Source: a virus. Taken from it: 64,000 bases of DNA. The stretch is taken from IMG/VR virus record IMGVR_UViG_3300029763_000196; one strand, written 5' to 3'. Position 1 is the first letter of the stretch. Each line of letters begins with the position of its first letter. A program made the position numbers and the translations under genes. Shown piece after piece: positions 5,139 to 32,617 of this stretch. Below the pieces are notes generated by a model. That model searched no databases, was not told the origin of the DNA, and was given only the letters and a program-made list of their open reading frames with translations.

Positions 5139-5438
5139 TCAATCCATTCTGTTTTTATTATAATTCATTTTGGCTTCAATGAGTGAATCAATGTCACATT
5201 TGAAATGATGTAGTGTACTTAGGGCAACAATGATTACATCTGCCAGTTCTTCTTCTACATCTAAATACTCTTTAATATGTGGAGATTTCTCACCCGTACA
5301 CTCAAAGACTTCGGCAACTTCTTCAAGCAGATCGCGGTGAAGATTGTTGTTGCTATCATTGTCGGGATCAATCTTTCCACGTCTTACGGCACATTCATAA
5401 GCTTTCTGCGCGATCTCATTTAATTTTCCCATTATCAA
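5139..5438 (-). CDS. MazG-like nucleoside triphosphate pyrophosphohydrolase
   Basis: EEVAEVFE ... EELADVIIVAL motifs typical of the all-alpha NTP-PPase (MazG) fold; ~100 aa as in phage MazG. Confidence 0.6.
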   Translation of the reverse strand: MIMGKLNEIAQKAYECAVRRGKIDPDNDSNNNLHRDLLEEVAEVFECTGEKSPHIKEYLDVEEELADVIIVALSTLHHFKCDIDSLIEAKMNYNKNRMD

Positions 5439-5817
5439 TATGTTTTATCCAGTTATTATCTTTCTCCAAAAACCATTGCCAGCCATTTTGGGGCTTGATT
5501 TTTCGTTTTATATACCGGCGAACTGTGGCATAATTCAGATTTAGCTTTTGGGCGGCTTGGGTTATTGAATCGAATCTATACCATTTGCCTTCGGGAGTGA
5601 TTGCGATACACGCAAAGGCATGGGCGTTTCCATTAGACCAATATCTATGTCCTTTCAAAGCCTCGCTGTGTCTTTTTCTTATTTCAACAGCTCTCTCTTT
5701 GCCATAGTATTCTTCATAGGTTTTTCCTCTTAATCCGTGGTGATAGCCTTTATTGAAAACATTATGTCCGTTGACAACCCGTGTGACCGGTATTTCAGGG
5801 TCTAATCTTAATTCCAT
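5416..5817 (-). CDS. homing-endonuclease-like DNA-binding protein (NUMOD-type modules)
   Basis: RKRHSEALKGHRYWSNG (NUMOD3-like) and ITPEGKWYRFDSITQAAQKLNLNYATVRRYIK (NUMOD1-like HTH); no clear nuclease core. Confidence 0.35.
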   Translation of the reverse strand: MELRLDPEIPVTRVVNGHNVFNKGYHHGLRGKTYEEYYGKERAVEIRKRHSEALKGHRYWSNGNAHAFACIAITPEGKWYRFDSITQAAQKLNLNYATVRRYIKRKIKPQNGWQWFLEKDNNWIKHIDNGKIK

Positions 5818-5818
5818 A

Positions 5819-6334
5819 TTATTCCTTATTTTTGTAATTATCTCTTCTCATTTGGTGATAGCGATAGTACATGGATAAGTCGAGTTTACGAATGAAATTA
5901 TCATCCGCTTTCATGTCAGAAACTTTTTGGGCAGGCTTGACTACCTCAAAGAAAATTCTCTTTACCGCATACCTTCCCTTTTCAAGAGAATAACATTGCA
6001 CTGATCCTTCATAAGCATAAATAAGCCCGGCAAAATCAGGGACTTCATCGGGCTTTATCAAACTTTTTGGTACTATATAATAAAAATAATTGGTACGTTG
6101 GCCGGAAGTGACAACATCAAACTTGTTCTTGCCATATTTATCACTTTTCTTTTTATCCTTATGGAAATCACATCTGCTTACTTTTACTTCATATTCATAA
6201 GTCAGGCGTGACCGGGTAACTTCCAATAAGTCAGCTTCCCATTTCCCGACAAAAATATTGGGAAAGATGCGGTTTCCTTTTTTATCACGAAAAACATGAT
6301 CGCAAAAGCCTTGTATAATATCAAGTGTTTTCAT
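5819..6334 (-). CDS. hypothetical protein, possible PD-(D/E)xK nuclease fold
   Basis: EAD..LEV..EYEVKVS arrangement resembles a D...E.K motif; weak. Confidence 0.25.
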   Translation of the reverse strand: MKTLDIIQGFCDHVFRDKKGNRIFPNIFVGKWEADLLEVTRSRLTYEYEVKVSRCDFHKDKKKSDKYGKNKFDVVTSGQRTNYFYYIVPKSLIKPDEVPDFAGLIYAYEGSVQCYSLEKGRYAVKRIFFEVVKPAQKVSDMKADDNFIRKLDLSMYYRYHQMRRDNYKNKE

Positions 6335-6738
6335 TTGATCTTTCCATGTTCCTTATCCAGTTCATACTCAAAAAATCCTTTTGCCTTATCATAAAGTCCG
6401 TCCTTTATATCAGAGAAATACATAGCGGCATTAAAGGCTTTCAATGCTGCCACACGAGCTTTCTTCTTATAATAGTCTGCCCGTTTGATCGTATTTTCTT
6501 CTTTTCTACGTTCTTGCTGTTCCAAATATCGGTCAACCGCTTCTCGTCCCCAACGGAACATGTCTTCTTTGTCGGCAAAGGTGGCAGATTCTTCACGGAT
6601 CAGCCTTTTCTCCGAGGAAATGACATAAGCTGATATTCCTTTGTATCTACGAATGGAAACGGCTATGTCGAAACCTTTATAATTTTGCTGTTCAACATAG
6701 CCGCCAAGAGTATATGGGAAGTCTGTCTTTTCTATCAT
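6331..6738 (-). CDS. hypothetical protein
   Basis: ORF, overlaps neighbours by 4 nt at both ends (operon packing). Confidence 0.4.
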   Translation of the reverse strand: MIEKTDFPYTLGGYVEQQNYKGFDIAVSIRRYKGISAYVISSEKRLIREESATFADKEDMFRWGREAVDRYLEQQERRKEENTIKRADYYKKKARVAALKAFNAAMYFSDIKDGLYDKAKGFFEYELDKEHGKIK

Positions 6739-8006
6739 ACAGCTTTGATATTGATTAGTGGCACAATTGTATCAATAATTTCTACCGTAGGTTCTATAAG
6801 CTCTTTTATTTCCTGAACATTTTTGTATGCCATAGGACTTTCATCCAATGTCCCTTCACATACGGAAGTGGAATACACTTTGCTCATTTGGGTTTTGAAT
6901 GCGTCCATTGATAATCTTTCTTTAGCTTCGGAACGGGAGTATAAGCGTCCTGCACCATGTGGTGCAGAATAGTTCCAGTCTTTGTTTCCCTTACCACGAC
7001 AAAGAAGAATACCGTCTGCCATATTCATAGGAATCACAACGTAATCATTGGCGTATGCGGCAATAGCCCCTTTACGGATTATCATATCATCAAAGCTGAT
7101 ATAGTTATGGACTGTCTCAACGGATATTGTAGCGTTCCAGCTCAAAGTTCTGATTATACGCTGTATAATCAACTTGCGGTTGAATGCGGCATATCCTTGT
7201 GCGATCACCATGTCACATAAATAGTGGAGCATTGCTTCATTTGTGAGATACCCGGAATATTCGGCAAATTTTTCCTTCAAACGTAGTATTTCAGTTTGCA
7301 TGAATTGTGGCTCAACAGTGGACTTCAAGCGTTGAATTTCATTAGAAAAAGCCTTTTTATCAAATTTTGCTATTTCTGCATGGTATTTACAGACCTTCAC
7401 ACCAAAGTTGCGCGATCCGGTATGTATTGTAAGAAATATATTATTGGTTGACTCGGCACGCCCCAGTTCTATAAAGTGGTTTCCACCTCCCAATGTACCT
7501 AAAGAGTTGTAGAATGTGCCTTCATTTATCCCCACCTTCTTACAAAGTTGTGATACATATTCTTCATTAATAACTGGTTTGGTTAGTTGGTATTTAGAGC
7601 AGAACTGATCCATTCTGATAGATAAGAAGGTAAACAAATCTTCCTTTTCTTGTTTGGATAAGGGTTGTTGGTTAATCTCAAATCCCATAGGTATGATGGA
7701 ACGGATTGCATGATTAATGTCCGGGAAAGACTCTTCTGTTATTGCATTTTCAATTTCTACACACAACATTCCACAACCAATATCCACTCCGATATGATTG
7801 GGGTTGACACGATCTGTAACTGGCATGGTGAATCCAATCACTATATCTACTCCCTGATGGGTATCAGGCATAATACGAACCGGAACACCAGTCGTAACCG
7901 GATTGTTCAAAATGTTTTGTATCGTTCCAATAGCTTCATTTTCTATTGCATTTGTAAATATTTTACAATCTTTGCCGAATTTTCCTTGTAATTCAATCAT
8001 AATCAA
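6735..8006 (-). CDS. rtcB: RtcB family RNA 3'-phosphate ligase (tRNA repair ligase)
   Basis: RtcB hallmark motifs RIMPDTHQG, GVDIGCGM, GGGNHFIE, APHGAGR in the expected order; 423 aa. Confidence 0.9.
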   Translation of the reverse strand: MIMIELQGKFGKDCKIFTNAIENEAIGTIQNILNNPVTTGVPVRIMPDTHQGVDIVIGFTMPVTDRVNPNHIGVDIGCGMLCVEIENAITEESFPDINHAIRSIIPMGFEINQQPLSKQEKEDLFTFLSIRMDQFCSKYQLTKPVINEEYVSQLCKKVGINEGTFYNSLGTLGGGNHFIELGRAESTNNIFLTIHTGSRNFGVKVCKYHAEIAKFDKKAFSNEIQRLKSTVEPQFMQTEILRLKEKFAEYSGYLTNEAMLHYLCDMVIAQGYAAFNRKLIIQRIIRTLSWNATISVETVHNYISFDDMIIRKGAIAAYANDYVVIPMNMADGILLCRGKGNKDWNYSAPHGAGRLYSRSEAKERLSMDAFKTQMSKVYSTSVCEGTLDESPMAYKNVQEIKELIEPTVEIIDTIVPLINIKAV

Positions 8007-8212
8007 ATCTTTTCGTTAAGTTTTTCAAGAAGTTCATTCGCACAGTTCTTTGCGTATTCTTCATCTTCATCATGAAAGGACTTGACTGTTATCCAAATCC
8101 CTGCAAATTTAACTTGTACTTTGTAATCAAGAAGGAGGTATTTCTCTCTGTTTCCGCTGCAATTATCTTCTACGAAGGTAGTCGTTTTATTGATTCTGTA
8201 CTGTTTCATCAT
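8003..8212 (-). CDS. hypothetical protein
   Basis: small ORF overlapping rtcB stop by 4 nt. Confidence 0.35.
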   Translation of the reverse strand: MMKQYRINKTTTFVEDNCSGNREKYLLLDYKVQVKFAGIWITVKSFHDEDEEYAKNCANELLEKLNEKI

Positions 8213-11702: not shown

Positions 11703-12155
11703 TTATTTAACTATCATCCAATCGTTAGCAAGCATATCTGTCTGTGATGCAAGCCAACCATTTACAACGGTGCCATCGGCAGCTTTCATACATAAGTATG
11801 CAGTAAATTTGATTTTATCAATTTCCGAATCTCCATAATTGTTGGCTATCCATTTTTTGAATGATTCGGGAAGTGATTTAACATGATTAACAACCTTTTC
11901 CGTTGATAAACAATCTTCAGGACGCATGAATATGAACATACCCTTACCGTTCCATCCTTTACGAGTAACGAGATGCCCTCGTTTGAGAGATTCAAGTGCT
12001 TGCCCAAAGGTTCCCGTTTCTTCTCCAAGTAATTCACATTCCATTGCCCCTTGTCCGTAAATGGTTTCAATAGTTCCTTTGTAGCTTGCAAGTTCAGGGA
12101 ACTCAGCTACAACCCCTGCTGCATATTCGGCAGCCTTTTCGTCTAATGTCTTCAT
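11703..12155 (-). CDS. DUF2829-domain protein (Tad2-like anti-Thoeris sponge candidate) with an extra N-terminal region
   Basis: LESLKRGHLVTRKGWNGKGMFIF ... DGTVVNGWLASQTDMLANDWMIV matches the DUF2829 signature (KRxGWNGKGMYI...W..W). Confidence 0.5.
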   Translation of the reverse strand: MKTLDEKAAEYAAGVVAEFPELASYKGTIETIYGQGAMECELLGEETGTFGQALESLKRGHLVTRKGWNGKGMFIFMRPEDCLSTEKVVNHVKSLPESFKKWIANNYGDSEIDKIKFTAYLCMKAADGTVVNGWLASQTDMLANDWMIVK

Positions 12156-12272: not shown

Positions 12273-12280
12273 ATAATAAG
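12273..12280. repeat. left copy of 8-bp flanking direct repeat ATAATAAG (putative target-site duplication of the Mu-like insertion)
   Basis: identical octamer at 47970..47977 immediately outside the inverted terminal transposase-site repeats. Confidence 0.5.
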
Positions 12281-12286
12281 GGGGAT

Positions 12287-12767
12287 AAAACGAAATGCGA
12301 TAAATTGAGTTATTCCGCATAAACGGTAATAGTTTTGATATACAAATAGTTATGTACGAATAGGAGAGGGGAGAGAGAAAAAACGAAAAGTTTACTCTGC
12401 TTTACTTTGGCTTTACTTTGGACTTTACTTTGAACGGTTTGAACGCCCGTCAACTTTACATGGCAATGGAGATGTGATAAACGGAGTAGAGTAGGGTAGG
12501 AGAAATGCGGTACATGGGCTGCGAAATGCTTTATTTAGGCGTTTTGCAGCCCTTTTTGTGCTTTATAGATAGATTGGCTTCCTACTTTTGAATAGTTGAA
12601 ATTTAGTGCTCAAAATAGCGAAAATAGGGATGGGGGAGGAGAGTGGCGATTTTAACGGGAATATTTCGTTTTTTGAGGATTGGATATGCAGTAGGATATG
12701 CGTTTGGGTATGCAAATTTGTCAAGAAAAAAACGAAATGTGTTGATTGGGTATGCGTTTGGATATGC
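12287..12767. promoter_or_regulatory. left-end region with transposase/repressor binding-site repeats
   Basis: AAAACGAAATGCGA (12287-12300), AAAAACGAAAAG (12377-12390), inverted ATTTCGTTTTTT (12663-12674), AAAAAACGAAATGTG (12725-12740); five GG(A/G)TATGC repeats (12682,12694,12706,12748,12760) spaced by CGTTTGG. Confidence 0.5.
12396..12433. repeat. tandem ~10-bp repeats CTTTACTTTG(G) x3.5
   Basis: gctttactttggctttactttggactttactttgaac seen directly. Confidence 0.6.
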
Positions 12768-12976
12768 AATTTAAGCAAAATTAAGATGGGTTGAATTATA
12801 CAAGTTACCATTTTACTACCCGTTTTTATGGCTTTATGTATTATTCAAGGGGGGAAAATACCATATAAAGAATAATGCAAATCAGCATATATGATAGAGT
12901 AATATGCTGATTTATAAAAAGGTATCTGGCAATTTCTGTTTTATTTGTGTTGAAAACGTGCGTGTGTCTCTTTTAT

Positions 12977-13633
12977 TTAGAACAATCTGTGCATACTTCC
13001 TAATACTGCGTATACTTTCTGTATCATGGAAATAGGAATGTCTTGCGGACTGTATTCCGGGCTTTTATTGGTGGGGATTAAGCGAATAAAATCTTTTTGG
13101 TCTGCTTTTCCTATTCGTTTAACAGTCCGATAGCTTTCTGTCACGATGGCATATATTTCTCCATAGGGGAGATATTGGACGGGATCGGTCATTTCTTTGA
13201 GGGCGATATAGTCTCCGTTGCTTAATTCGGGTTCCATAGAATGACCTGTAATATTACACCACACAACACCGGGTTTATTGTAAGGCTCAAAATTTATATA
13301 GTAATCCGGATTAATTGTTTGATCATTTAAAACGAGATCAAATCCACCGATAAAATCTACATTGTAGTAAGGTGCTCCCTTATATTCATAATTAATAGTC
13401 GGGAGTGATAGCGGCTGTGGGGTTTCCTTTAGCATAGAGCCTCGCCCTGTTATTAGCCATTCTAAATTGAGGTGAGGATAATTATCCGCAATAACGGAAA
13501 GCCATTTGCTTTGAATATCTGTTTTATTATTTATGGCTCGCCTAATCATGCCATCGCTCGCAGATATTGACTGTTCAAAAGATCTAACGCTAATCCCTTG
13601 ATTTTGTATAAATTGGCTAATTCGTTCAATCAT
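12977..13633 (-). CDS. CI/LexA-like repressor (XRE HTH + S24 peptidase domain) of the Mu-like phage
   Basis: N-terminal HTH ending LNLEWLITGRGSM; C-terminal GHSMEPEL...GDYIA...RIGK (Ser-Lys dyad peptidase S24 signature); leftward, adjacent to left end as in Mu c. Confidence 0.8.
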   Translation of the reverse strand: MIERISQFIQNQGISVRSFEQSISASDGMIRRAINNKTDIQSKWLSVIADNYPHLNLEWLITGRGSMLKETPQPLSLPTINYEYKGAPYYNVDFIGGFDLVLNDQTINPDYYINFEPYNKPGVVWCNITGHSMEPELSNGDYIALKEMTDPVQYLPYGEIYAIVTESYRTVKRIGKADQKDFIRLIPTNKSPEYSPQDIPISMIQKVYAVLGSMHRLF

Positions 13634-13783
13634 AATTTTATTCTTTCTGTGAAAATAATCACGATTTTGCTTTATATTGTGATAATTATCCTATATATTT
13701 GCATCACCGTATTAATATTACCGGCTGTAAAGGTAGTGAAAACGGCTGATATGACAATGAATAACTTTTAAAAACAATGTGAT

Positions 13784-13969
13784 ATGAGAAAGCGAATAGT
13801 AGTAGATCGTGGTGAGATCAAGAAAATCTCAAAGGATTTTAAAGTCACGAGCAAAGCCGTTTGGGAGGCACTGGTTTATCGCAGTAACAGCAGCAAGGCG
13901 AGGCTTATCCGTAAGGTAGCCCTTGAACGTGGAGGTGTTGAAATCGGAGATCAAAAGGAGGCGGTATGA
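13784..13969 (+). CDS. Ner/Cro-like small DNA-binding protein
   Basis: 61 aa, HTH-like ISKDFKVTSKAVWEAL, divergent from repressor, first gene of rightward early operon. Confidence 0.45.
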   Translation: MRKRIVVDRGEIKKISKDFKVTSKAVWEALVYRSNSSKARLIRKVALERGGVEIGDQKEAV

Positions 13970-14184
13970 AAAAGGTGTTGTTACTTCTCTTTGGAGATGA
14001 GTTCAGGGAGTATTTCTCTTTGACTGCGAGGCAAAAGTTTTACGTGTGGTATTTCTGCCTAAGTTTATGCTTTTTATGTATAACTGATGATAGTCCGATA
14101 TGGGCTATTATAGTGGTAGTCTTGAATTTTGCCAATGCCGCCCGCCTGATTAAAAAAGTACCATTAAATATAAAGGAGGATTAA
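13966..14184 (+). CDS. small membrane protein
   Basis: hydrophobic segments VLLLLFG and WAIIVVVLNFANAA. Confidence 0.3.
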   Translation: MKKVLLLLFGDEFREYFSLTARQKFYVWYFCLSLCFLCITDDSPIWAIIVVVLNFANAARLIKKVPLNIKED

Positions 14185-14186
14185 TC

Positions 14187-14594
14187 ATGAAAAGAGTATT
14201 TCACGTTAAAGAAGATGACACTATCAGAAAATTGTTTGAAGATCTGCTTGATGCGGAAAGAACCTTGTACTCCGCAAGATGCCCCGAAATCGTCAACGAG
14301 ATGGATGACACGCCCTCTCTATGGCTGTCTTTACAACCTCCTTATGTTCCCTCTCAATCTCGTTCACGGCGTTTTTTAGAGCTTGATGAAGAGCCTTACT
14401 TCCGCTTGGCCGGCCTTTTGGAATTGACGTATAGAAACTCAACTCCACCGGAACTCCAAACGCGGGGGTTAACCATCCGGATTCGGGATAATAAGGCTTA
14501 CTTCTGTATCTCAGGTTCAATCTCCTTAGCTGATTTGCAAACGCTGTGCGAACGTTGTCAGGCTGGGCAATCTCCTGATCAATGTAAAAAGTGA
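14187..14594 (+). CDS. hypothetical protein
   Basis: 135-aa ORF with SD (aaggagga) upstream. Confidence 0.4.
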   Translation: MKRVFHVKEDDTIRKLFEDLLDAERTLYSARCPEIVNEMDDTPSLWLSLQPPYVPSQSRSRRFLELDEEPYFRLAGLLELTYRNSTPPELQTRGLTIRIRDNKAYFCISGSISLADLQTLCERCQAGQSPDQCKK

Positions 14595-14649
14595 TACAAA
14601 ATGATGTTTCCATGATGATAACGATTTGATTTTGCAAAGGTAAGAAAAA

Positions 14650-14692
14650 TCCCGGACGGTCTTTTGAGGTGGTTCGACTCCGCCTCCGGGGA
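14650..14692 (+). other. tRNA-like acceptor/T-arm minihelix (tRNA 3'-half-like fragment) just upstream of the transposase gene
   Basis: TCCCGGA...GGTGG TTCGACT CCGCC TCCGGGG A : T-loop consensus GGTTCGACTCC flanked by complementary acceptor-like arms; no D or anticodon arm. Confidence 0.3.
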
Positions 14693-14708
14693 CAAAGTTT
14701 AAAAAGGT

Positions 14709-16781
14709 ATGGAGTATTTTGGAAAAACAGTATGTGCAACTTACGATGAATTAACATCAGGAAATGATCCGGTAATAAAACCCGGAACATTGAAGTCCTT
14801 GCAATACAGGAAACGTGTTGATGTTATTTCTCGTGGAGGCGGTGGAGGAAACATCGCCTTATATGTCTATTCCTCCCTACCTGAACGTTACCGGATCCGC
14901 TTTGAGCAAAAGTATGGTGATCCGGTGGAGCTAATCAAAGAGCAGTGCATGAAAGACAGGCTTAAAATAGATGATGCCGCCCGAACATTCTTTGAGGATT
15001 ACCGGTATGACAAGGCCGGCGAGATGGTGAGCCTTACCGAAAGGAAAAAAGAGGAATACACCATAAACGCCTCGGTACTGAACGAGTTGATATCGATCCT
15101 GAATGACCGGGAGGGCTATCGCAAGGCTTTGGGTGGAAGTACAAAGAAAGTATGGGAAACGATTATCGGAACGGCAGACCGCCTCCGTGATTCTTATGGC
15201 CACACACTGCCTGAAAACGCCGCCCGGCTGAAAGACAAGATAAACCAATACAAGAAAGAGGGTTACTCCTGCCTGATCAGCAAGAAAATGGGGAATGACA
15301 ATACCCTGAAAATAACCGAGGAAGCCGGTAACATGATTATAGCGTTAAAGCGGAGTAGCGTTCCCGTTTATACTGATGCTCAAATATTCGTGGAATTCAA
15401 CCGGATTGCAGAAGAGAAAGGCTGGAAGCAGCTCCGGAGCATTCAGAGCCTCCGTGGGTTCCTGAACCGTCCTGACATCGAACCGTTGTGGTACGATGCC
15501 GTTCACGGGGAGCTGAAAGCCCACCAGCGTTACAGCCGCAAGAATAAAACCGAGCTTCCTTCGATGCGTGACTCCCTATGGTACGGTGACGGTACGAAAA
15601 TCAATTTGTATTACAAGGATTACGACAAAGACGGTAAGCTGGTGGTTCGTACCACTCAGGTTTACGAGGTCATCGATGCTTATTCGGAGGTATTTTTGGG
15701 ATACCATATTTCAGACAGCGAGGACTACGAAGCGCAATATAATGCCTACCGCATGGCCGTTCAGGTATCAGGTCATAAGCCTTACGAGCTGGTGCATGAT
15801 AATCAGGGAGGCCACAAAAAGCTGCAAAACAGCAAATTCTTTGACAAGATTGTCGGCCATGTTCACAGAACCACGGCTCCATACAGCGGGCAGTCCAAAA
15901 CGATAGAGAGTGTTTTCGGACGTTTTCAGGCCGAGGTTCTGCACAAGGATTGGAGGTTCACCGGCCAAAATATCACCACCAAAAAGGACACGAGCCGCCC
16001 GAATTTAGAGCGTATCGAGGCGAACAAGGATAAACTTTACACTCTGGCCGAACTGAAAGCGGCATACGCTGCCGTCCGGAAAGAATGGAACGAAAGCAGG
16101 CATTTTGCTACCGGATTGAGCCGTATGGAAATGTACAAAAACAGCGTGAACCCTGATACCCCGGCGGTGGGTGTTCTCGACATGATCGAGATGTTTTGGG
16201 TGATGACGGACAAACCGTCCACTTATACTGACAACGGCCTGAAAATAACTATCAAGAAACGTGAGTTCACATACGAGGTGTACGAGGCCCCGGGTTTTCC
16301 CGATCACGAATTTCTCAGGAACAACAGGGGGCAAAAATTCTACACGATGTATGATCCTTATGACCATACCTCGGTACGGCTCTACAAGAAAGATAAGGCA
16401 GGAGAGCTGAGATTTGTACGGACGGCGGAGCCTTATATCGTTATCCACCGTAACATTCAGGAGCAGACCGAGGGCGAAATGGCCTTTATCCGCCGGAATA
16501 TCGAGGCGAACACGGAGGATCGCATCGAGCGTCAGGTGGGAGCCCGGATCATCGAGCAGGCGCACGGCGTGAGCATGGAACAACAGGGACTCAAACGTCC
16601 GAAACTGAAAGGTGTAAAGAAAGAAACGGAGCGTGAGATTGAACGCCGTGTCCGTCGGTACAGTCAGTATCCGGAGCAGCTCTCCGCCGGTAAGGTGACA
16701 AAACTGATAAGCAACATCACGTTTGACCAGCTGAATGGAGACATCCGCCTGAATGAAAAGAAAGTAGCAGGAAAATTATAA
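14709..16781 (+). CDS. MuA-like DDE transposase
   Basis: 690 aa; catalytic-core-like LWYGDGT ... VIDAYS ... SKTIESVFGRFQ spacing of Mu/rve-type DDE transposases; followed by MuB-like ATPase. Confidence 0.85.
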   Translation: MEYFGKTVCATYDELTSGNDPVIKPGTLKSLQYRKRVDVISRGGGGGNIALYVYSSLPERYRIRFEQKYGDPVELIKEQCMKDRLKIDDAARTFFEDYRYDKAGEMVSLTERKKEEYTINASVLNELISILNDREGYRKALGGSTKKVWETIIGTADRLRDSYGHTLPENAARLKDKINQYKKEGYSCLISKKMGNDNTLKITEEAGNMIIALKRSSVPVYTDAQIFVEFNRIAEEKGWKQLRSIQSLRGFLNRPDIEPLWYDAVHGELKAHQRYSRKNKTELPSMRDSLWYGDGTKINLYYKDYDKDGKLVVRTTQVYEVIDAYSEVFLGYHISDSEDYEAQYNAYRMAVQVSGHKPYELVHDNQGGHKKLQNSKFFDKIVGHVHRTTAPYSGQSKTIESVFGRFQAEVLHKDWRFTGQNITTKKDTSRPNLERIEANKDKLYTLAELKAAYAAVRKEWNESRHFATGLSRMEMYKNSVNPDTPAVGVLDMIEMFWVMTDKPSTYTDNGLKITIKKREFTYEVYEAPGFPDHEFLRNNRGQKFYTMYDPYDHTSVRLYKKDKAGELRFVRTAEPYIVIHRNIQEQTEGEMAFIRRNIEANTEDRIERQVGARIIEQAHGVSMEQQGLKRPKLKGVKKETEREIERRVRRYSQYPEQLSAGKVTKLISNITFDQLNGDIRLNEKKVAGKL

Positions 16782-16792
16782 TTCAAAATAAA

Positions 16793-17674
16793 ATGAACAG
16801 TACAATGACACAGCAAGAGAAAGACAATATCCGTGATGTTCTCCGGGTATATGCAGCGAAGTATTCCAGCCAAAAAAAGGCTGCGGCGAGTTTGAACGGC
16901 GTGTCTGCCGGTACACTGAGTGCCGTGATTAACGGCAAGTACGAGAATATCAGCGATGATATGTTCCGTAATATCATCGCTCAGATTACTCCGGCAGCCG
17001 CAGCTACCGGTTGGCAGCTGGTGGAAACGAACTCCTTTCAGGAAATATGGTATGCCCTGAGCGATGCGCAGGAGTTTAAAAAAGTCCGCTGGATCGTGGG
17101 TGGTGCGGGATGCGGCAAAACAACGACAGCCACCATGTACGCACAAAAAAATCATGAGGTGTTCGTCATCCTTTGTGATGAGGATATGCGGAAAGGTGAT
17201 TTTGTCCGGGAGATCGCCCGTAAACTCGGTTTCAAGACTTGCGGGATGCGTATCCGTGAAATATTGGACTTGGCCATCGAGAGCATCATACAGATGGAAA
17301 ATCCGCTTTTGGTATTCGATGAGGGTGACAAGTTGAACGATAACGTGTTCCACTACTTTATCAACCTGTATAACCGGTTGGAGGGCAAATGCGGGATTAC
17401 TTTCTTATCCACTGATTACATCCAGCACCGTATCGATTGCGGTTTGAACCATAACCGGAAAGGGTATAACGAGATTTATTCCCGTATCGGGCGTAAGTTC
17501 TTTGAGCTGGAGCCAACCTCCTGCAATGATGTGTTTGCCATTTGTCAAGCCAACGGCCTGACGGACAAGAAACAGATCGCAAATGTGATCGATTTGACGG
17601 AGAAATCGGAGTTTGATTTGCGATGCGTGAAAGATGCCATTCACCGGGAGAAAAAGGTGGCGGCAGCGAAATAG
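16793..17674 (+). CDS. MuB-like AAA+ transposition ATPase (target DNA activator)
   Basis: Walker A WIVGGAGCGKTTT, Walker B LLVFDEGD, 293 aa, immediately downstream of transposase. Confidence 0.8.
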   Translation: MNSTMTQQEKDNIRDVLRVYAAKYSSQKKAAASLNGVSAGTLSAVINGKYENISDDMFRNIIAQITPAAAATGWQLVETNSFQEIWYALSDAQEFKKVRWIVGGAGCGKTTTATMYAQKNHEVFVILCDEDMRKGDFVREIARKLGFKTCGMRIREILDLAIESIIQMENPLLVFDEGDKLNDNVFHYFINLYNRLEGKCGITFLSTDYIQHRIDCGLNHNRKGYNEIYSRIGRKFFELEPTSCNDVFAICQANGLTDKKQIANVIDLTEKSEFDLRCVKDAIHREKKVAAAK

Positions 17675-17731
17675 TATAAAAACCTGTTCAAATGCCGGTT
17701 GAACGGCGTTTGAACGTAATTCAAAAAGTAT

Positions 17732-18175
17732 ATGAAACAAATTGTTTTACCACTCGCAAGCCGGTTCCCTGTAGGCCATTTGAAAAAAGGCCAGATTACC
17801 GGCTTTCCTGAGAAAGTGATTAAAGGAACCAAGATCCACACGTTTCGTGAGGATCCGGGCAAATGGGCGTACAACGTGGAGCTTATCAACTCCCATGATG
17901 CGGAGCTATCTATCCGCCGGTGGATTGGCCGTCCTTATCACACTCCGCAGCTGGAGGTGAAAAGATTGAAGAAAATCGGTATCCAGCAGGTGCAGATGAC
18001 ATGGGAGTCCGATATCGAGCAGCCGACCGTTTTCATAGACGGGAAACGTATCCTGAACGTGGAGCAGCTGGCTGCTAATGACGGGATGACTCTCGATGAT
18101 TTCGTGAGCTGGTTTTTTAAGACCTCCGACACTTTCGAGGGAGTGATTATTCATTTTACAGATTTCAGATATTGA
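17732..18175 (+). CDS. hypothetical early protein
   Basis: 147-aa ORF. Confidence 0.4.
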   Translation: MKQIVLPLASRFPVGHLKKGQITGFPEKVIKGTKIHTFREDPGKWAYNVELINSHDAELSIRRWIGRPYHTPQLEVKRLKKIGIQQVQMTWESDIEQPTVFIDGKRILNVEQLAANDGMTLDDFVSWFFKTSDTFEGVIIHFTDFRY

Positions 18176-18178
18176 TTT

Positions 18179-18799
18179 ATGGCACGGGCATTATCGGTAA
18201 CAGAAGCAGTAAGCATGAAGAAAGAAACGCTCAAGCTGACAGGTGCATGGGCGGACGCTTTCGGAGAGCCTGAACGGATTGGCGTTTGGTTTATTTGGGG
18301 CAATAGTGGTAACGGGAAAAGCAGCTTTGTCATGCAGCTTTGTAAAGAGCTGGCAAAGTTCGGGCGGGTGGCTTATGACAGCCTCGAAGAGGGTGCGAGC
18401 CTTACCATGCAGAACACGCTCCGCCGTTTCAACATGGCCGAGGTAAACCGCCGTTTCCAGCTACTTGACTGCGAACCGATATCCGAGCTTAGTGAAAGGA
18501 TGGATAAACATAAAAGCCCCGATTTTTACGTCATCGACAGTTTTCAATATACCCAAATGAGCTATAAGGAGTACATCAAATTTAAGGAGGCGCACCGGAA
18601 TAAGCTGCTGATATTTATCTCCCATGCGGATGGACGGAACCCTGATGGCCGGAGCGCAAAGAAAGTGATGTATGATGCCGCCTTGAAAATTTACGTGGAG
18701 GGTTTCCGGGCTTTCTCGAAAGGCCGTTTTTTCGGCTCTGTAGGGCACTTTACTGTTTGGAATGAGGGTGCGATAAGATATTGGGGAGATAACGCTTAA
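18179..18799 (+). CDS. P-loop NTPase of unknown function
   Basis: Walker A GNSGNGKSS, Walker B-like FYVIDSF. Confidence 0.45.
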   Translation: MARALSVTEAVSMKKETLKLTGAWADAFGEPERIGVWFIWGNSGNGKSSFVMQLCKELAKFGRVAYDSLEEGASLTMQNTLRRFNMAEVNRRFQLLDCEPISELSERMDKHKSPDFYVIDSFQYTQMSYKEYIKFKEAHRNKLLIFISHADGRNPDGRSAKKVMYDAALKIYVEGFRAFSKGRFFGSVGHFTVWNEGAIRYWGDNA

Positions 18800-18810
18800 A
18801 ACGAACGGAA

Positions 18811-19038
18811 ATGAGCAAGAATAACCAAGTTATAACGATTTCGCCTCCCATGTTTATCGGGGAGGGAAACAGGAAAGAAAGTATCTCCAGCAAAGGCCAC
18901 CGGTGTAGCTATTGCCACGGTAACGGTTTCTTTTGGGGAGAGGAACAACGGGAACGGGTGAAAGTTGATTGCCCGGTCTGCAAAGGTAGCGGTAAACTCG
19001 ATGCCGTGATAACTATCGAGTGGAAACCTGCAAAATGA
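18811..19038 (+). CDS. small zinc-finger protein (DnaJ-type CxxCxGxG repeats)
   Basis: CSYCHGNG ... CPVCKGSG. Confidence 0.45.
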   Translation: MSKNNQVITISPPMFIGEGNRKESISSKGHRCSYCHGNGFFWGEEQRERVKVDCPVCKGSGKLDAVITIEWKPAK

Positions 19039-19044
19039 TATAGA

Positions 19045-19308
19045 ATGAGCTATATAGATTATACCAGAAGTTCTTCTAATTCTGCATACGAAATGACAGT
19101 GTGTATGACAAAAAAAGAATGCAAGACTTTGCTCCCTTTCTTTAGAACGGCGTATAAAAATATCAGGAAAAAATACGATAGGTATGAAGATATCCATGAA
19201 GGAGGAGAAGCAACGGAAAAACAGGAAAATCTACGAATGAAATACACGGAGGAACTTGGGGATTTGGAGAGTATTATATCAGAAATAGAAACAATTTTAA
19301 AACAGTGA
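19045..19308 (+). CDS. hypothetical protein
   Basis: 87-aa ORF in semi-essential early region. Confidence 0.3.
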   Translation: MSYIDYTRSSSNSAYEMTVCMTKKECKTLLPFFRTAYKNIRKKYDRYEDIHEGGEATEKQENLRMKYTEELGDLESIISEIETILKQ

Positions 19309-19311
19309 GCT

Positions 19312-19728
19312 ATGGGGTATGATTTGATTCCTAAAAAAAATGGTGTTGATAGTAAGCACGGAATGATATTCACTTGGCCGGTCATTTTAAAAGAAACTGG
19401 AGCCGGTTATCTGTTTGGATATGGAACGAATACATTTCAACCGGGAAAATATATATATGACGGTTCCCGTCTTGATGGCAGTCCGGTTAGTAACGATGGA
19501 TTTGATGTATCGAAGGAGGATGCGCTTATTATGGCAAGACTTTTTAAGGGATATGTCTTTGTAAAACGGGGGCTGATTGAAGAATGGGAGAAGATGTCTG
19601 AAAAGGAACAAACTTTAGCTAAATCATTGCTTGGTGAAAAAGCGGCTCCTCCCTCTGAAGAATTTTTGCGGAAAGTAGAAATGTTGGCAGAGTTTTGTGA
19701 ACAGTCTGAAGGATTTAATATATGGTGA
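19312..19728 (+). CDS. hypothetical protein
   Basis: 138-aa ORF. Confidence 0.35.
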   Translation: MGYDLIPKKNGVDSKHGMIFTWPVILKETGAGYLFGYGTNTFQPGKYIYDGSRLDGSPVSNDGFDVSKEDALIMARLFKGYVFVKRGLIEEWEKMSEKEQTLAKSLLGEKAAPPSEEFLRKVEMLAEFCEQSEGFNIW

Positions 19729-19737
19729 AATCTGAAT

Positions 19738-19989
19738 ATGGATTATAACAGAATGGAAATAAACAAGGAACTTTTTCAAATAGGCTTGCCGGTAGCCTCT
19801 TTAAGCACAGTCCTGATGAATTGGACTTGCTTTAACCGACCGGAGAAATTGCTGATCAGCCCGGCCAAGAAAGATGATTGGGCGGTGGTTGAACTCCGGA
19901 ACCCGGAGCTGGCCGCAGCTATCATCAAGGATGTGCCGGAGGCAATGGTAAAAGTAGTACAACAACCTGTAAAAGTCGTGCAAATATGA
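19738..19989 (+). CDS. hypothetical protein
   Basis: 83-aa ORF. Confidence 0.3.
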   Translation: MDYNRMEINKELFQIGLPVASLSTVLMNWTCFNRPEKLLISPAKKDDWAVVELRNPELAAAIIKDVPEAMVKVVQQPVKVVQI

Positions 19990-20255
19990 AAGCGTTATCA
20001 GCATTAAGACAGGTATTCAGCCTGAAAAAGAACGAGGAACTCGGCAGAAAGTTCTCTCCCGAAGAATTGAAACGTATTGTCGATGCCATGAAAGAGTATG
20101 CGGCATCCAAGCTGCAGGAGCAGCGAGCCATTTGTCAGCGTGAATTTGAGTTGGCCTATGACTCCGGCGAAAGTAATTTGGGGACGAACCCGGCCATTAC
20201 CGAATTGTACGTTCTGCAATCCCTAAAAGAGAGTGAAACCCCTGAACTTGATTGA
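19986..20255 (+). CDS. hypothetical protein
   Basis: 89-aa ORF, overlapping starts/stops with neighbours. Confidence 0.3.
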   Translation: MKALSALRQVFSLKKNEELGRKFSPEELKRIVDAMKEYAASKLQEQRAICQREFELAYDSGESNLGTNPAITELYVLQSLKESETPELD

Positions 20256-20680
20256 TTATGGCAAAGACAAACAGTTATTCACGTTTTTGGACGCTGCTGG
20301 CGAAAATGCCCTGTTCTGACAGGGACGGTTTAAAGCTGCAGCTTGTATCCAGCTTTACGAATGGGCGGACGGACTCACTGAGAGAAATGACTTTGAGTGA
20401 ATATAACTCGATGATACGGGAGATGGAGAAGCAGACCGGATCCAGCCGTCCGGTCAGTTACGAGGTTCTGAAAAAGAAACGCTCTGCCGTTCTCCACCAA
20501 ATGCAGTTGATGGGTATTGATACGGCAAATTGGGCGGCGGTGGATAACTTTTGTTTGGGCGTTCGTATCGCAGGAAAGAAATTCAGGGAGTTGTCCGCTG
20601 ATGATTTGGATGCGGTATTGCTCCGGATCCGCTCCATCCGGCAAAAGGATATGCAGAAAGCAAAGAAAGAACTCAATTAA
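20252..20680 (+). CDS. hypothetical protein
   Basis: 142-aa ORF. Confidence 0.35.
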   Translation: MIMAKTNSYSRFWTLLAKMPCSDRDGLKLQLVSSFTNGRTDSLREMTLSEYNSMIREMEKQTGSSRPVSYEVLKKKRSAVLHQMQLMGIDTANWAAVDNFCLGVRIAGKKFRELSADDLDAVLLRIRSIRQKDMQKAKKELN

Positions 20681-20711
20681 CTTATTTATAAACCATTTAA
20701 AATGTGATATT

Positions 20712-21380
20712 ATGGCACAGATTGAAGAAAAGCAGACTGTTGAAATGACGGCAGAGGAAAAGGCTCAATTCGAGGCTTTCCGTAAAGAAAAGGCCAAAAA
20801 AGAGACTCAGGAAAAGGCGAAAGCCGAACGTGAAACGTACCGCCAAATGGTGGATGATGAAGTGAACAGCGCAATCCCGGTACTCCTCTCCTTGAGTGAG
20901 GATATCAAGGAAACCAAAAAGACGGTGCTGGAGAACTTTAAGAGTATCCTTGACATGAAATGCGAGGTTCTGAAAGTCGTAAAGGATGACCAGCGCAGCC
21001 ATACCTTTACCAATTCGGAGGGAACCAAGCGCATCACTCTCGGAGTGTACGTGACGGACGGCTACCGTGACACGGTGGAGGACGGCATCGTGATCGTGAA
21101 AGAATACATCGAGAGCCTCGCCGACAATGCTAAAACGAAATCACTCGTGAGCATGGTTTTGAAGTTGCTGGCACGTGATGCCAAAGGCACGTTAAAAGCC
21201 AGTCGTATCGTCCAGCTTCGCAAAATTGCAGAGGAAAGCAACAATGACCGTTTCATGGAGGGTGTCCGCATCATTGAGGAGGCATACCAGCCAGCGATCA
21301 GCAAACAGTTTGTGAGAGCGGAAATGAAGAACGGGGACGGTATGTGGGTGACCATTCCTCTGGGTATGACAGAAGCATAA
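20712..21380 (+). CDS. DUF3164-like Mu-like prophage protein
   Basis: start taken at ATG 20712 (MAQIEEKQ), the track ORF from 20517 overlaps the previous gene; acidic coiled N-terminus then conserved core typical of DUF3164 in Mu-like phages (family recall, moderate). Confidence 0.4.
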   Translation: MAQIEEKQTVEMTAEEKAQFEAFRKEKAKKETQEKAKAERETYRQMVDDEVNSAIPVLLSLSEDIKETKKTVLENFKSILDMKCEVLKVVKDDQRSHTFTNSEGTKRITLGVYVTDGYRDTVEDGIVIVKEYIESLADNAKTKSLVSMVLKLLARDAKGTLKASRIVQLRKIAEESNNDRFMEGVRIIEEAYQPAISKQFVRAEMKNGDGMWVTIPLGMTEA

Positions 21381-21392
21381 GGAGGGACGGTC

Positions 21393-21677
21393 ATGATATA
21401 CAAAGTTCAATTCCAAATCCACCGCAGAGGTTACCGCAAGCTCCGGCTTGAGGGTTTGTACGTGCCGGAAACGGGTGTCGAGATGTCGGTTCCTGAAATG
21501 AAACGTGACGTTACCGAGTTCATCAAACGCCAGCTTTCCAGCCGGAACAAGGAATTTGAGAATTTTCAGGTGGAACTGACGGTTTTCAAAAAGCTCAAAA
21601 CCGATTTCATGTATCACCCGAAATCAAGTGAAGAATTAACCGTAATAAAGGAGGAATCAGATGGAACAGACGAATAA
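21393..21677 (+). CDS. hypothetical protein
   Basis: 94-aa ORF. Confidence 0.3.
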   Translation: MIYKVQFQIHRRGYRKLRLEGLYVPETGVEMSVPEMKRDVTEFIKRQLSSRNKEFENFQVELTVFKKLKTDFMYHPKSSEELTVIKEESDGTDE

Positions 21678-21903
21678 TGCGAAAGCCCGGTATATTCCCA
21701 CCCGTGTGGCTGTATGCAAGCGTTGCGAGGGAAAAGGCGTTGTATTCGAGTACAGCGATGAGAACAGGACAAAGGTATCCGGATCCTGCCAATGTCCGAC
21801 CTGCCTCGGATCCGGCAGAGTGAAAGTGACCAGCTCGGTGATAACCACTATAAAGCCGTTCGTTCCGGGTAAGGATGACAAAGAGGGTATGCTTGCAATG
21901 TAA
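21661..21903 (+). CDS. small zinc-finger protein (CxxCxGxG x2)
   Basis: CKRCEGKG ... CPTCLGSG. Confidence 0.4.
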   Translation: MEQTNNAKARYIPTRVAVCKRCEGKGVVFEYSDENRTKVSGSCQCPTCLGSGRVKVTSSVITTIKPFVPGKDDKEGMLAM

Positions 21904-21925
21904 AAGCCCTTTAATCAATAATAAA

Positions 21926-21962
21926 AGTCCGCTGAAATCCTAATTTTCAGCAGACTTTTTTC
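21926..21962 (+). terminator. rho-independent terminator ending the rightward early operon
   Basis: AGTCCGCTGAAA / TTTCAGCAGACT stem (1 mismatch) followed by TTTTTT. Confidence 0.5.
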
Positions 21963-22010
21963 GTACTATGGTGCAAATAATGTACCTTTGTATTAAGTAA
22001 TCAAATCAAT

Positions 22011-22358
22011 ATGCAGGAGCAGCTCGTAATACCGTTTTTTTGCCCGGAAATAGAGAAAGCCGGTAACCGCCGCAGAACACGCACGGTTGCCTCCTCCGAT
22101 GCTGCCATCACCTCCCGCCGTGACCGCCTCGAAAAGCGGAACCGCATCATGACCGCCCGTTATTACTATTGGACTGAGATCAAACGCCGCCGCTTCGATG
22201 ACGTGCTGAGAATCCTTTCCGATAACGAGTTCTTTGTCGAAGAGCGAACCATCAGCAACACGCTGGTGGAACAGGATGATTTTTACAATGAACTCCTGCG
22301 TTCCAAAGCATCCACCCGCAAGCTCAAAGCGATGTTTCCCGGCTTTGATTGGAACTAA
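22011..22358 (+). CDS. hypothetical protein
   Basis: 115-aa ORF. Confidence 0.3.
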   Translation: MQEQLVIPFFCPEIEKAGNRRRTRTVASSDAAITSRRDRLEKRNRIMTARYYYWTEIKRRRFDDVLRILSDNEFFVEERTISNTLVEQDDFYNELLRSKASTRKLKAMFPGFDWN

Positions 22359-22786
22359 TCCATAAACTCGGTTTCATAAATCACGTTATAGACTTTCAGA
22401 CCGTCCGCTCTTTTTTCCGGCGCACCCCGGAGGCGGCGCATCGGGTTGAAAAGGTTCCCCCCGTTCCACCATTGCAAAGCCTCGTGTATCTTATCCAACG
22501 TGTCCATGCAGGAGAGAGCGTGTTCCCTGACAAGTTTAGGGGCTGCCGCATTTGTACTCCCTCCGGCTTGAAAGGCCACCCTGAGTTGTATTTGCGCCTT
22601 TATCTTTTGCCGTCCACCCATGTGGGTTTCGCAGGACGGGTAAGATATATCTATCAGGCAGCACGGGAAAGCCACAGCAGGCCGCTCTCCCGTGTTAAGT
22701 TGTCCCTCCTCGGCATCTATCCACCGGAGCCCGGGTACTTCTGTTTTCAGCCGGTCACAAACGGCAATAAAAATTTCTTTGTTCAT
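22355..22786 (-). CDS. hypothetical virion/morphogenesis protein
   Basis: 143-aa ORF at the end of the leftward head operon. Confidence 0.3.
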   Translation of the reverse strand: MNKEIFIAVCDRLKTEVPGLRWIDAEEGQLNTGERPAVAFPCCLIDISYPSCETHMGGRQKIKAQIQLRVAFQAGGSTNAAAPKLVREHALSCMDTLDKIHEALQWWNGGNLFNPMRRLRGAPEKRADGLKVYNVIYETEFMD

Positions 22787-22788
22787 AG

Positions 22789-23334
22789 CTATTCATTGTT
22801 AAGTGAGTCAATATATCCCTCTATCCGTGCGTGTATCTGCTCGTTCAATTCTTCGGAATCTCCCATGAATTCACGTTTCGGGATGTTAGTTTTCCGGGTG
22901 TGCGCCTTGACCGGTACATCTTTCCGTTTTGTTTTCCGGGTGTGTGCCGGTACGGGTACTATACCTTTGAATCCCTCGTTGTGTACCTGAGCGTAATCTA
23001 CCTTTTCATTCCCTGCAGAGATAACCACCCGCTGGGGAGTTATCACCGCCGGTCTGATACTGTTCACCAGCGCACCGGAGTCAATCAGCAGGGAACCGGT
23101 TGTTTTCGGTACTTTTGCCGGAGTCCACGGGTTCCCGTCAAATGCTTTCTTCTTGAAAGCTGATTTATAGTATTCCGTGGCCGTTTCCGCCACGATTTCT
23201 GCCGCATCGGAGATTATCTCCTCCGGGAGCGATTGCAGATAATTATTTAATTCTTTGATATTCATATTGAAATAATTTTGTATATTTGCTTCCGTAAGCA
23301 TATCGCTCCGGGGATGAATCGAATATGCCAACAC
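22789..23334 (-). CDS. Mu G-like virion morphogenesis protein
   Basis: position after portal/F gene and weak family resemblance; contains internal duplicated peptide P.(P/K)AHTRKT. Confidence 0.4.
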   Translation of the reverse strand: MLAYSIHPRSDMLTEANIQNYFNMNIKELNNYLQSLPEEIISDAAEIVAETATEYYKSAFKKKAFDGNPWTPAKVPKTTGSLLIDSGALVNSIRPAVITPQRVVISAGNEKVDYAQVHNEGFKGIVPVPAHTRKTKRKDVPVKAHTRKTNIPKREFMGDSEELNEQIHARIEGYIDSLNNE

Positions 23335-23427
23335 CTGACGGATGACGGGGGCATCAAAAAGTCCGGGCTTTATACGGCGGAGCGGGATGTTAATCCGTAT
23401 ATAAAAGGAGGTTCTCAGAGCCTCCTT

Positions 23428-25962: not shown

Positions 25963-25965
25963 ATA

Positions 25966-26391
25966 TTAAAAATGTTGATTACGCTTGGGATTGCTCCCGT
26001 AGATATATTCACCTGCAGTATCCGGTTTCCCGTCACCGTCCTCGTCTATAATGGGGAGGTTAGGCTTAATGTCTGATTTCTGTACTTGCCTGAGCCATGC
26101 CACGGCACGCTCGTACCTATCCTGCCGGAGCTGCAGGTCAGTACCGGCATTGCATAGGTTCACGAAATGCCACACGGCTATGTCCTTTACAAAAATGAGC
26201 AGGAGGGCGTTTCTTTGGCTCCCTGTGGCCTCGAAAATCTTTTTGCGGTCATACGCACCAAGATATCCGTATGCTTCCTGTACGGCAGCGTCTATGGCTG
26301 CCGTGAGGATTGTTTCATCCTCCCTGCTGATAGCCTCTATATTCTCTTTATAGAGGTGCGTTTCCAATTCTTTGGGTGTGATAAATGCCAT
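25966..26391 (-). CDS. Mu gp36-like (DUF1320) head protein
   Basis: size and position between TerL and portal as in Mu-like phages. Confidence 0.35.
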   Translation of the reverse strand: MAFITPKELETHLYKENIEAISREDETILTAAIDAAVQEAYGYLGAYDRKKIFEATGSQRNALLLIFVKDIAVWHFVNLCNAGTDLQLRQDRYERAVAWLRQVQKSDIKPNLPIIDEDGDGKPDTAGEYIYGSNPKRNQHF

Positions 26392-26393
26392 GA

Positions 26394-28354: not shown

Positions 28355-28502
28355 AATTGTATCATTTTATAGCCCAAAGGTAAAGCCTTGCGGTGAGTGA
28401 AAATAATTGGTTTGTAATGGTTTACGTTTAAACTGAAATGGCTGCGGTTTAAGTTGAAACGGTTACAGGCCGATTTGTACAGCCCGTTTTTTACCCTGAA
28501 TT

Positions 28503-29513: not shown

Positions 29514-29540
29514 TTATTAACCAGTAAAACAAGAATAGAA

Positions 29541-30452: not shown

Positions 30453-30456
30453 AGTT

Positions 30457-30921: not shown

Positions 30922-30933
30922 CAAAGCAAAGAG

Positions 30934-31870: not shown

Positions 31871-31876
31871 AGAACA

Positions 31877-32614: not shown

Positions 32615-32617
32615 CCC

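Follow-up and report, generated by a model that had tools for sequence, protein, structure and literature searches.

An RtcB-family RNA ligase in the early operon of a LoVEphage-like temperate phage, with a proposed role in tRNA repair

What use would a temperate phage of the human gut have for an RNA ligase of the RtcB family? The question is raised by IMG/VR virus record IMGVR_UViG_3300029763_000196, of which a stretch of 64,000 nucleotides, here called the window, carries a minus-strand gene for such an enzyme in a tightly packed operon. An earlier interpretation made from the nucleotide sequence (the sequence-only reading) had proposed that the enzyme counters host defences by repairing the RNAs that these cleave. 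The best explanation of the locus combines identity of the gene as RtcB with counter-defence repair of tRNA; taken together these are probably correct, with a mechanism that we infer. The gene in question is as follows.

6735..8006, minus strand: RtcB 3'-phosphate/5'-hydroxyl RNA ligase, recognised by PF01139, by phrog_1075, and by alignment of its active site.

The open reading frame (ORF) would give 423 amino acids from a TTG codon, or 421 from the ATG at 8000 that is used in the deposited records and is probably the true start. Residues 42-421 match positions 14-425 of the 426 in PF01139 (195.8 bits, cutoff 27, E=1.9e-57), and residues 3-422 match positions 56-441 of the 459 in phrog_1075, 'tRNA splicing ligase' (E=1.8e-119). 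When the window protein was aligned with RtcB of Escherichia coli K-12 and seven database homologues, the active-site residues of the E. coli enzyme that were checked were all identical in the window protein (9/9). D75, C78, N167, H168, and H185 of E. coli correspond to D75, C78, N176, H177, and H195, and R189, H281, H337, and R341 correspond to R199, H300, H350, and R354. All nine are also identical in every aligned homologue that spans these columns. Their roles in the E. coli enzyme, including that of H337 as the nucleophile that accepts GMP, we take to be those assigned by mutagenesis in the Shuman laboratory. The RtcB structures from Pyrococcus and Thermus have the same motifs in HMMER alignments with the window protein. 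The sequence-only reading, which had recognised a full-length RtcB with its catalytic motifs, is borne out by both profile matches and by the intact active-site residues. The family assignment is secure, and the gene is predicted to encode a catalytically competent RtcB-family RNA ligase.

The window protein and E. coli RtcB are 30% identical and belong to the same Pfam family, and with the whole of the active site shared the same chemistry, dependent on GTP and Mn2+, would be expected of the phage protein. It differs from the E. coli enzyme in having two insertions, roughly at residues 115-165 and 213-255. The E. coli rtcBA operon is regulated by RtcR, whereas the phage gene is accompanied by neither RtcA nor RtcR and lies in a phage early operon. 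Within PHROG 1075, which includes proteins from mycobacteriophages, from myoviruses of Listeria, Bacillus, and Enterococcus, and from an unannotated 735-kb uncultured phage, the window RtcB is a full-length member.

Judged by its sequence, the window comes from a LoVEphage-like temperate phage of Bacteroides/Phocaeicola. Positions 3700-12276 and 47973-64000 have 96-99% nucleotide identity to LoVEphage (MW660583) and to PV4-TP1 and BI-TP1, two temperate phages obtained by induction, and there is no host flank within the window. LoVEphage has been described as a temperate, inducible phage with a high prevalence in the human gut (PMC8525569). It has been detected in about 8-14% of viromes and induced from lysogens of B. 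thetaiotaomicron, P. dorei, and P. vulgatus (PMC12629997). The window RtcB shares 99.8% of its amino acids with the 'tRNA-splicing ligase' of MW660583 (QVQ57120.1), and the same gene is present at full length in MW660583, PQ571302, PQ571265, OY731433, OY731444, and OY725593, at 95.7-99.8% amino acid identity. All six of these LoVEphage records have the same neighbours around RtcB and the same operon; the window differs from them in carrying a second prophage upstream of RtcB.

about 12277..47972, plus strand: Mu-like transposable prophage of 35.7 kb, recognised by its absence from the LoVEphage records, by Mu-type domains, and by its GC content.

The placing of RtcB in a prophage early operon by the sequence-only reading is supported by this homology to an inducible temperate phage. 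The operon is long and runs leftward, beginning beside a CI-type repressor gene from which it diverges. It also holds genes for RecT, exonuclease VIII, a methyltransferase, a resolvase, and a single-strand DNA-binding protein. Several DNA methyltransferase genes are in the same operon as RtcB, as is a gene that is the last of LoVEphage before the Mu-like insertion.

11703..12155, minus strand: Tad2-like (DUF2829) putative anti-Thoeris protein, PF11195, E=2.8e-24.

A scan of the operon for sigma-70 promoters and terminators gave counts at the level of chance and is uninformative, as would be expected with Bacteroides promoters. The LoVEphage reference MW660583 carries eight canonical tRNAs at positions 17-858.

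By tblastn, homologues of RtcB were found in 703 of 50,697 phage records, and in this collection identity does not exceed 46% outside the LoVEphage group. Relatives of at least 93% identity are located on phage contigs, on viral contigs of IMG/VR, or on genome contigs of the Bacteroides/Phocaeicola type, and every relative at 93-100% with surroundings that were examined lies in a LoVEphage-like locus. This is not the setting of a gene of the host core genome, a possibility that the sequence-only reading had raised.

In the proposed role, RtcB would with GTP and Mn2+ be guanylylated at His350, by homology. Once a 2',3'-cyclic phosphate had been opened, it would move the GMP onto the RNA 3'-phosphate and would then join that end to a 5'-hydroxyl. 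During lytic growth the enzyme would most probably in this way reseal tRNAs, whether the host's or the phage's own, that have been cut by metal-independent RNases. Candidates for these RNases are anticodon nucleases, toxin or HEPN RNases, and the RNase effectors of competing elements, and the resealing would keep translation running. Comparative genomics assigns phage RtcB to the resealing of cleaved tRNA (PMC7824862). The functional analogy is with Pnkp and Rnl1 of phage T4, which reseal the tRNA-Lys cut by PrrC; the model proposed for phage RtcB is likewise that of a phage enzyme resealing tRNA cut by a host anticodon nuclease (PMC7824862). The folds and chemistry are unrelated, since the T4 enzymes carry out an ATP-dependent 5'-phosphate/3'-hydroxyl ligation that needs healing of the ends, while RtcB seals a 3'-phosphate or 2',3'-cyclic phosphate directly to a 5'-hydroxyl; T4 also has a known cognate nuclease, PrrC.

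The company kept by related RtcB genes also has a bearing on this role. The nearest cellular relatives, at 47-48% identity, are found in Bacteroidales RNA-repair contexts. In one such locus (L006) the operon runs WYL/WCX regulator, TROVE (Ro60), YrlA, RlaP, RlaP, YrlA, RtcB; in a second (L132) the order is TROVE-YrlA-x-RtcB, and in a third (L131) RtcB is directly downstream of a YrlA-like RNA. The Bacteroidales operons of Ro60 (TROVE), YrlA, RlaP, and RtcB correspond to Salmonella rsr-yrlBA-rtcBA and have tRNA-like RNAs linked to them. Unlike them, the LoVEphage stretches examined have no annotated TROVE, RlaP, or WYL gene, and in place of YrlA LoVEphage carries a tRNA-like gene of normal topology with an insertion in the anticodon loop. 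No TROVE domain was found by Pfam in the window proteins scanned (0/30). Two phage relatives on large contigs (L008 and L129) have an RtcB that is 55% identical, and about 5 kb upstream of it are YrlA-like arrays with tRNA-like modules (L008:1090-1560 and L129:1853-2119); the fetched stretches of these two contain no TROVE/Ro60 gene. In other phages RtcB is often beside tRNA arrays, for example the 19 tRNAs in L116. Taken together, these contexts tie this clade of RtcB to the biology of tRNA and tRNA-like RNA. A role in RNA repair is favoured, though indirectly, by the Ro60/YrlA/RlaP/RtcB kinship of the cellular relatives and by the tRNA arrays beside RtcB of other phages. It is also favoured, again indirectly, by the tRNAs and tRNA-like gene of LoVEphage and by the Tad2-like and methyltransferase genes of the operon.

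Whether the immediate neighbours share in this role depends on which of them are conserved with RtcB. Around RtcB, from the upstream side, these are as follows.

8003..8212, minus strand: 69-amino-acid ORF just upstream of RtcB, matching phrog_36110, function unassigned (E=9.4e-8).
6331..6738, minus strand: 135-amino-acid orphan, the start of which overlaps the RtcB stop (ATGA) and which is kept beside RtcB in relatives.
5819..6334, minus strand: MmcB-like PD-(D/E)xK nuclease-fold protein of 171 amino acids, matching phrog_2776 (E=1e-20) and phrog_5429, 'DNA repair protein' (E=3.5e-12).
5416..5817, minus strand: stand-alone NUMOD-like DNA-binding protein of 133 amino acids, matching PF22083 at residues 71-104 (E=4.8e-10).
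5139..5438, minus strand: small MazG-like all-alpha NTP pyrophosphohydrolase of 97-99 amino acids, matching PHROG pyrophosphatase families (E=8e-8 to 8e-6).

The minus-strand genes between 5139 and 8212 are tightly packed. There are ATGA start/stop overlaps at the junction of RtcB with the 135-amino-acid orphan and at that of the orphan with the 171-amino-acid protein, which suggests translational coupling, and the stop codon of the 69-amino-acid ORF overlaps the start region of RtcB. In the related phage L004 (as in L005) RtcB is 65% identical. Directly downstream of it in L004 is a homologue of the orphan (56% identity) with the same 4-nt overlap, and a syntenic MmcB-like homologue (66% identical) is also downstream. 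There is no NUMOD homologue at the corresponding position in L004, and the MazG homologue (61% identical) is in the same operon, 4 kb further downstream. The conserved unit is therefore RtcB, the 135-amino-acid protein, and the MmcB-like protein, because L004 and L005 keep those three and not the adjacency of NUMOD and MazG. NUMOD was accordingly rejected as a conserved member of the RtcB module. The two partners of RtcB have been seen only in the LoVE and L004 lineages. In the proposed mechanism the orphan and the MmcB-like protein would be the conserved operon partners of RtcB, with NUMOD and MazG merely neighbouring early genes; as compared between these phages, the MazG/NUMOD neighbourhood is not a conserved functional unit with RtcB.

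The sequence-only reading had placed MazG two genes from RtcB with a NUMOD-type protein between them. MazG is in fact four genes downstream, with the orphan, the MmcB-like gene, and NUMOD intervening, so that two genes had been missed and NUMOD is not the only one between. What held was the description of the NUMOD protein as having no nuclease core. None was detected by Pfam, PHROG, or NCBIfam; the match to TIGR01453 (GIY-YIG intron endonuclease) covers only C-terminal profile positions 129-204 of 215 (E=3.4e-4), and PHROG HNH/homing-endonuclease families match through their DNA-binding parts only. There is no room for a nuclease domain in the gene because the upstream gene starts 1 nt away. 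The protein thus resembles, as far as profiles can tell, the C-terminal module of a homing endonuclease that has no nuclease domain. The identification as MazG is favoured by the PHROG families and by ExxE (40-43) and ExxD (64-67) motifs, but the match to PF03819 is weak, at 20.8 bits under a cutoff of 22.

The 135-amino-acid orphan has no match in Pfam, PHROG, NCBIfam, or PADLOC, and none of its 35 homologues, each of at least 58% identity, has a Pfam domain (0/35). An AlphaFold2 model (pLDDT 78.6) has a 4-strand sheet and two long helices, with no significant fold match in PDB or BFVD and none that is archease-like. Archease, which the sequence-only reading had reported as absent, gave no Pfam match among ten neighbouring proteins and is not annotated in the LoVEphage stretches examined, nor is a PrfH-like gene annotated there. 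The MmcB-like protein carries a D35 and E49-V-K51 motif, and the MmcB-like label is also used in the annotations of MW660583 and PQ571302. A PADLOC scan of RtcB, the orphan, the MmcB-like protein, a 221-amino-acid ORF, and a radical-SAM protein gave no match. A Dam-type N6-adenine methyltransferase gene upstream (8462-8954, minus strand) is broken into two ORFs that overlap and are read in different frames. MW660583 and PQ571302 are annotated with the same split, which represents either a pseudogene or a frameshift that has been conserved.

The same operon contains one further element that could concern an RNA ligase.

54516..54679, minus strand: tRNA-like gene whose anticodon loop holds a 72-nt insertion, found with the Rfam tRNA model and an ARAGORN intron search.

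The Rfam tRNA match scores 29.5 bits (gathering score 29) and has 106 nt where the model expects a 17-nt anticodon arm. With its intron search ARAGORN calls the element as tRNA-His(GUG) with a 72-nt intron, a call given by 0 of 20 composition-matched shuffled windows; by default ARAGORN does not call it. In MW660583 the counterpart is annotated as a two-piece tRNA, the ninth beside the eight canonical ones. The element is of normal topology: the acceptor stem pairs perfectly over 7 bp, the D arm contains GG, the T loop is canonical, and the variable arm is long. It is not His-like, because it has A as discriminator and C at position -1, where tRNA-His has C73 and G-1, and it does not qualify as a canonical decoding tRNA, the anticodon loop not being 7 nt with the 72-nt insertion. 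Two LoVE variants differ at 7 positions of the element, two of which (2/7) form the compensatory change G2:C71 to A2:U71. Phages of the L004 type have a syntenic, diverged tRNA-like of 81 nt (L004:1201-1281) behind a conserved hairpin, with a 16-nt 'anticodon loop' and an acceptor stem that is wholly different yet paired (GGGCGGU/ACCGUCC). The L004-type element is conserved while its flanks diverge, and the tRNA-like is present in every LoVE- and L004-type relative examined. The compensatory change, the re-paired syntenic stem, and conservation against diverging flanks argue that the RNA is under selection.

The 72-nt insertion contains no bulge-helix-bulge by eye and its fold is not significant (z=-1.48), and no splicing endonuclease was identified. 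Rfam gives no YrlA match anywhere in the window at the gathering threshold, nor does it give one in 54300-54900 when matches of E<=1 are allowed. An alignment by MAFFT of the tRNA-like elements with tRNA-Tyr and tRNA-Ser of LoVEphage was uninformative, the lengths being different. Two relatives (L144 and L149) that seemed to be without the tRNA-like have it behind an inserted gene, some 1.1 kb further downstream, and were rejected as exceptions. Upstream of the tRNA-like, at about 54805-54838 on the minus strand, is a hairpin-forming motif, TCTCCCGGTGTGGCTT ... CCGGGAAC, which is kept between LoVEphage and the L004-type phages where the surrounding sequence differs. In the TROVE-YrlA-RlaP-RlaP-YrlA-RtcB operon of L006 there is a third RNA (L006:3331-3532), a tRNA-like of normal topology with a 7-bp acceptor stem, a D arm, and a canonical T arm, in which an insertion of about 116 nt replaces the anticodon arm. 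Its architecture is that of the LoVEphage tRNA-like; it is called by ARAGORN only and not by the Rfam tRNA model. Several other ARAGORN calls were discarded. An 'intron-containing tRNA' in L129 is an artefact in which the D arm of one YrlA-like unit is joined to the T arm of the next, and a 'tRNA-Ala' with a 29-nt intron in L089 is a false positive, with a mismatched acceptor stem and a position where the window is coding. A 'tRNA-Ser' with a 1817-nt intron (L006/L007) and a 'tRNA-Ile' with a 765-nt intron (L130) are spurious.

Several observations weigh against the tRNA-repair explanation. A literature search turned up no experiment that demonstrates such repair by any phage RtcB, the analysis identified no host anticodon nuclease as its counterpart, and the conserved neighbour is a nuclease of the DNA-type PD-(D/E)xK fold, not obviously fitting RNA repair. 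The relatives of the protein in PDB are distant (best E=4.5e-9), and two NCBIfam equivalog cutoffs are not reached, PRK09588 giving 128.4 bits (E=3.2e-37) where 407 is required and TIGR03073, 'release_rtcB', 105.4 bits (E=3.2e-30) where 271.8 is required. An intein-containing RtcB-family model (NF052663, E=1.2e-36) is likewise far under its family cutoff. The window RtcB is on these scores a divergent family member, an equivalog of neither PRK09588 nor TIGR03073, and because of the sub-cutoff scores and the distant PDB relatives substrate specificity is not transferable from the characterised enzymes. In this particular copy 35.7 kb of Mu-like prophage lie between the early promoter and RtcB, and the gene may for that reason not be expressed normally.

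The interrupted tRNA-like gene would suggest a different substrate, with RtcB acting mainly on RNA encoded by the phage, either splicing or re-ligating the 54516-54679 transcript or working with that transcript as a Y-RNA-like cofactor, as a Ro60/YrlA/RtcB module that lacks Ro60. A conserved tRNA-like with a 72-nt anticodon-loop insertion in the same operon, and in syntenic position in every LoVE- and L004-type relative examined, speaks for this. The YrlA-like RNAs that flank cellular RtcB relatives, the tRNA-like with a 116-nt insertion that also flanks RtcB in L006, and the YrlA-like arrays some 5 kb from RtcB in L008 and L129 are consistent with it. An insertion of 72 nt is also shorter than the group I introns known in bacterial tRNA genes. 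Against splicing are the insertion, which has no bulge-helix-bulge by eye and no significant fold, and the lack of any identified endonuclease, and the mature product would be odd, having a GUG anticodon, a class-II-like body, A73, and no G-1. The L004-type version has a 16-nt loop and no intron, the examples of L129 and L089 show that an 'intron tRNA' called by ARAGORN can be an artefact, and the element is 5-10 kb from RtcB, a linkage that may just reflect the shared early operon. Action mainly on phage RNA is, on balance, unlikely. A more specific proposal is doubtful to a slightly greater degree. In it RtcB, its overlapping 135-amino-acid partner, and the interrupted tRNA-like of LoVEphage-type phages would form a Ro60-independent module for RNA processing or repair, in which the phage's own tRNA-like transcript would either be ligated or spliced by RtcB or serve it as guide or decoy. 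Should splicing take place, it would, as far as is known, be the first protein-dependent splicing of the tRNA type reported for a bacterial virus.

The RtcB2-PrfH system reportedly repairs 16S rRNA after its cleavage by toxin RNases or by those of the colicin E3 type, and the window enzyme might in the same manner repair rRNA and not tRNA. TIGR03073 'release_rtcB', a subfamily name linked to a release factor, is indeed among the best NCBIfam matches, with PRK09588 and NF052663, but the scores are far under the family cutoffs, the LoVEphage stretches examined have no annotated gene resembling PrfH, and the nearest cellular relatives are in Ro60/YrlA contexts, not PrfH contexts, which leaves repair of rRNA improbable. 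The remaining alternative takes account of the MmcB-like neighbour. In vitro, E. coli RtcB can use DNA with 3'-phosphate ends, and the phage enzyme might cap or seal such ends together with the MmcB-like nuclease and the DUF3127 single-strand-binding-like protein, in replication or recombination of the phage. In its favour are the conserved trio of RtcB, the orphan, and the MmcB-like gene, and the abundance in the operon of genes of DNA metabolism (single-strand DNA-binding protein, RecT, exonuclease VIII, resolvase, methyltransferases). It is the least credible of the alternatives, and very improbable, since canonical PD-(D/E)xK nucleases leave 5'-phosphate and 3'-hydroxyl ends, which are not RtcB substrates, and the cellular relatives are embedded in RNA-centred operons.

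Resealing of cleaved tRNA is still the preferred role for the LoVEphage enzyme. The Mu-like prophage is missing from all of the LoVEphage records (6/6), and its flanks abut in PV4-TP1 (PQ571302) at 36712-36715. The sequence ATAA is duplicated at both junctions, and the GC content of the insert is 44-54%, compared with 37-41% in the flanks. It lies in the early operon upstream of RtcB, between the PAPS-reductase side and the Tad2-like/RtcB side. The left end has one copy of the AAAACGAAATGCGA repeat and the right end three inverted copies, and the genes include an S24 repressor and a MuB-like ATPase that carries the C-terminal domain of Mu B. There is no near match to the insert in the phage collection. 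The insertion shows this copy of LoVEphage to have resided in a cell. It has probably disabled the copy, because RtcB is severed from the early promoter and the composite prophage would be about 107 kb, compared with roughly 71.5 kb for the phage.

Other features of the Mu-like prophage were noted. A 690-amino-acid ORF (14709-16781, plus strand) just upstream of the MuB-like ATPase, at the position expected for a MuA-type transposase, has no Pfam match at E<=0.001. An 844-amino-acid fusion of Mu portal and Mu F (23428-25962, minus strand) has a C-terminal PBECR2 domain, which is a Barnase/EndoU/colicin E5-D/RelE-like RNase domain. If delivered with the virion, this RNase would yield RNA ends with 2',3'-cyclic phosphate and 5'-hydroxyl, the type of substrate used by RtcB. 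The accessory region at the right end (44780-47751, plus strand) encodes a reverse transcriptase (PADLOC RT, E=4.9e-38, RT_UG17-like), which is preceded or overlapped by an Rfam RT-17 RNA at 44831-44924 (62.7 bits). This could be the reverse transcriptase of a diversity-generating retroelement or one of defence. It is followed by a 138-amino-acid ORF and then a D12-class Dam methyltransferase.

The RtcB gene, the phage, and the repair hypothesis are already in the public record, and the finding of the gene adds nothing to its annotation. What is new is the context, comprising the 135-amino-acid and MmcB-like partners, the interrupted tRNA-like gene, the kinship with Ro60/YrlA/RlaP operons, and the nested Mu-like phage. 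Since LoVEphage can be induced from cultured Bacteroides/Phocaeicola lysogens (PMC8525569, PMC12629997), it is a practical system in which to study a phage RtcB. The role of the enzyme matters beyond this one locus, with homologues in 703 of the 50,697 phage records and LoVEphage itself among the commonest temperate phages of the gut.

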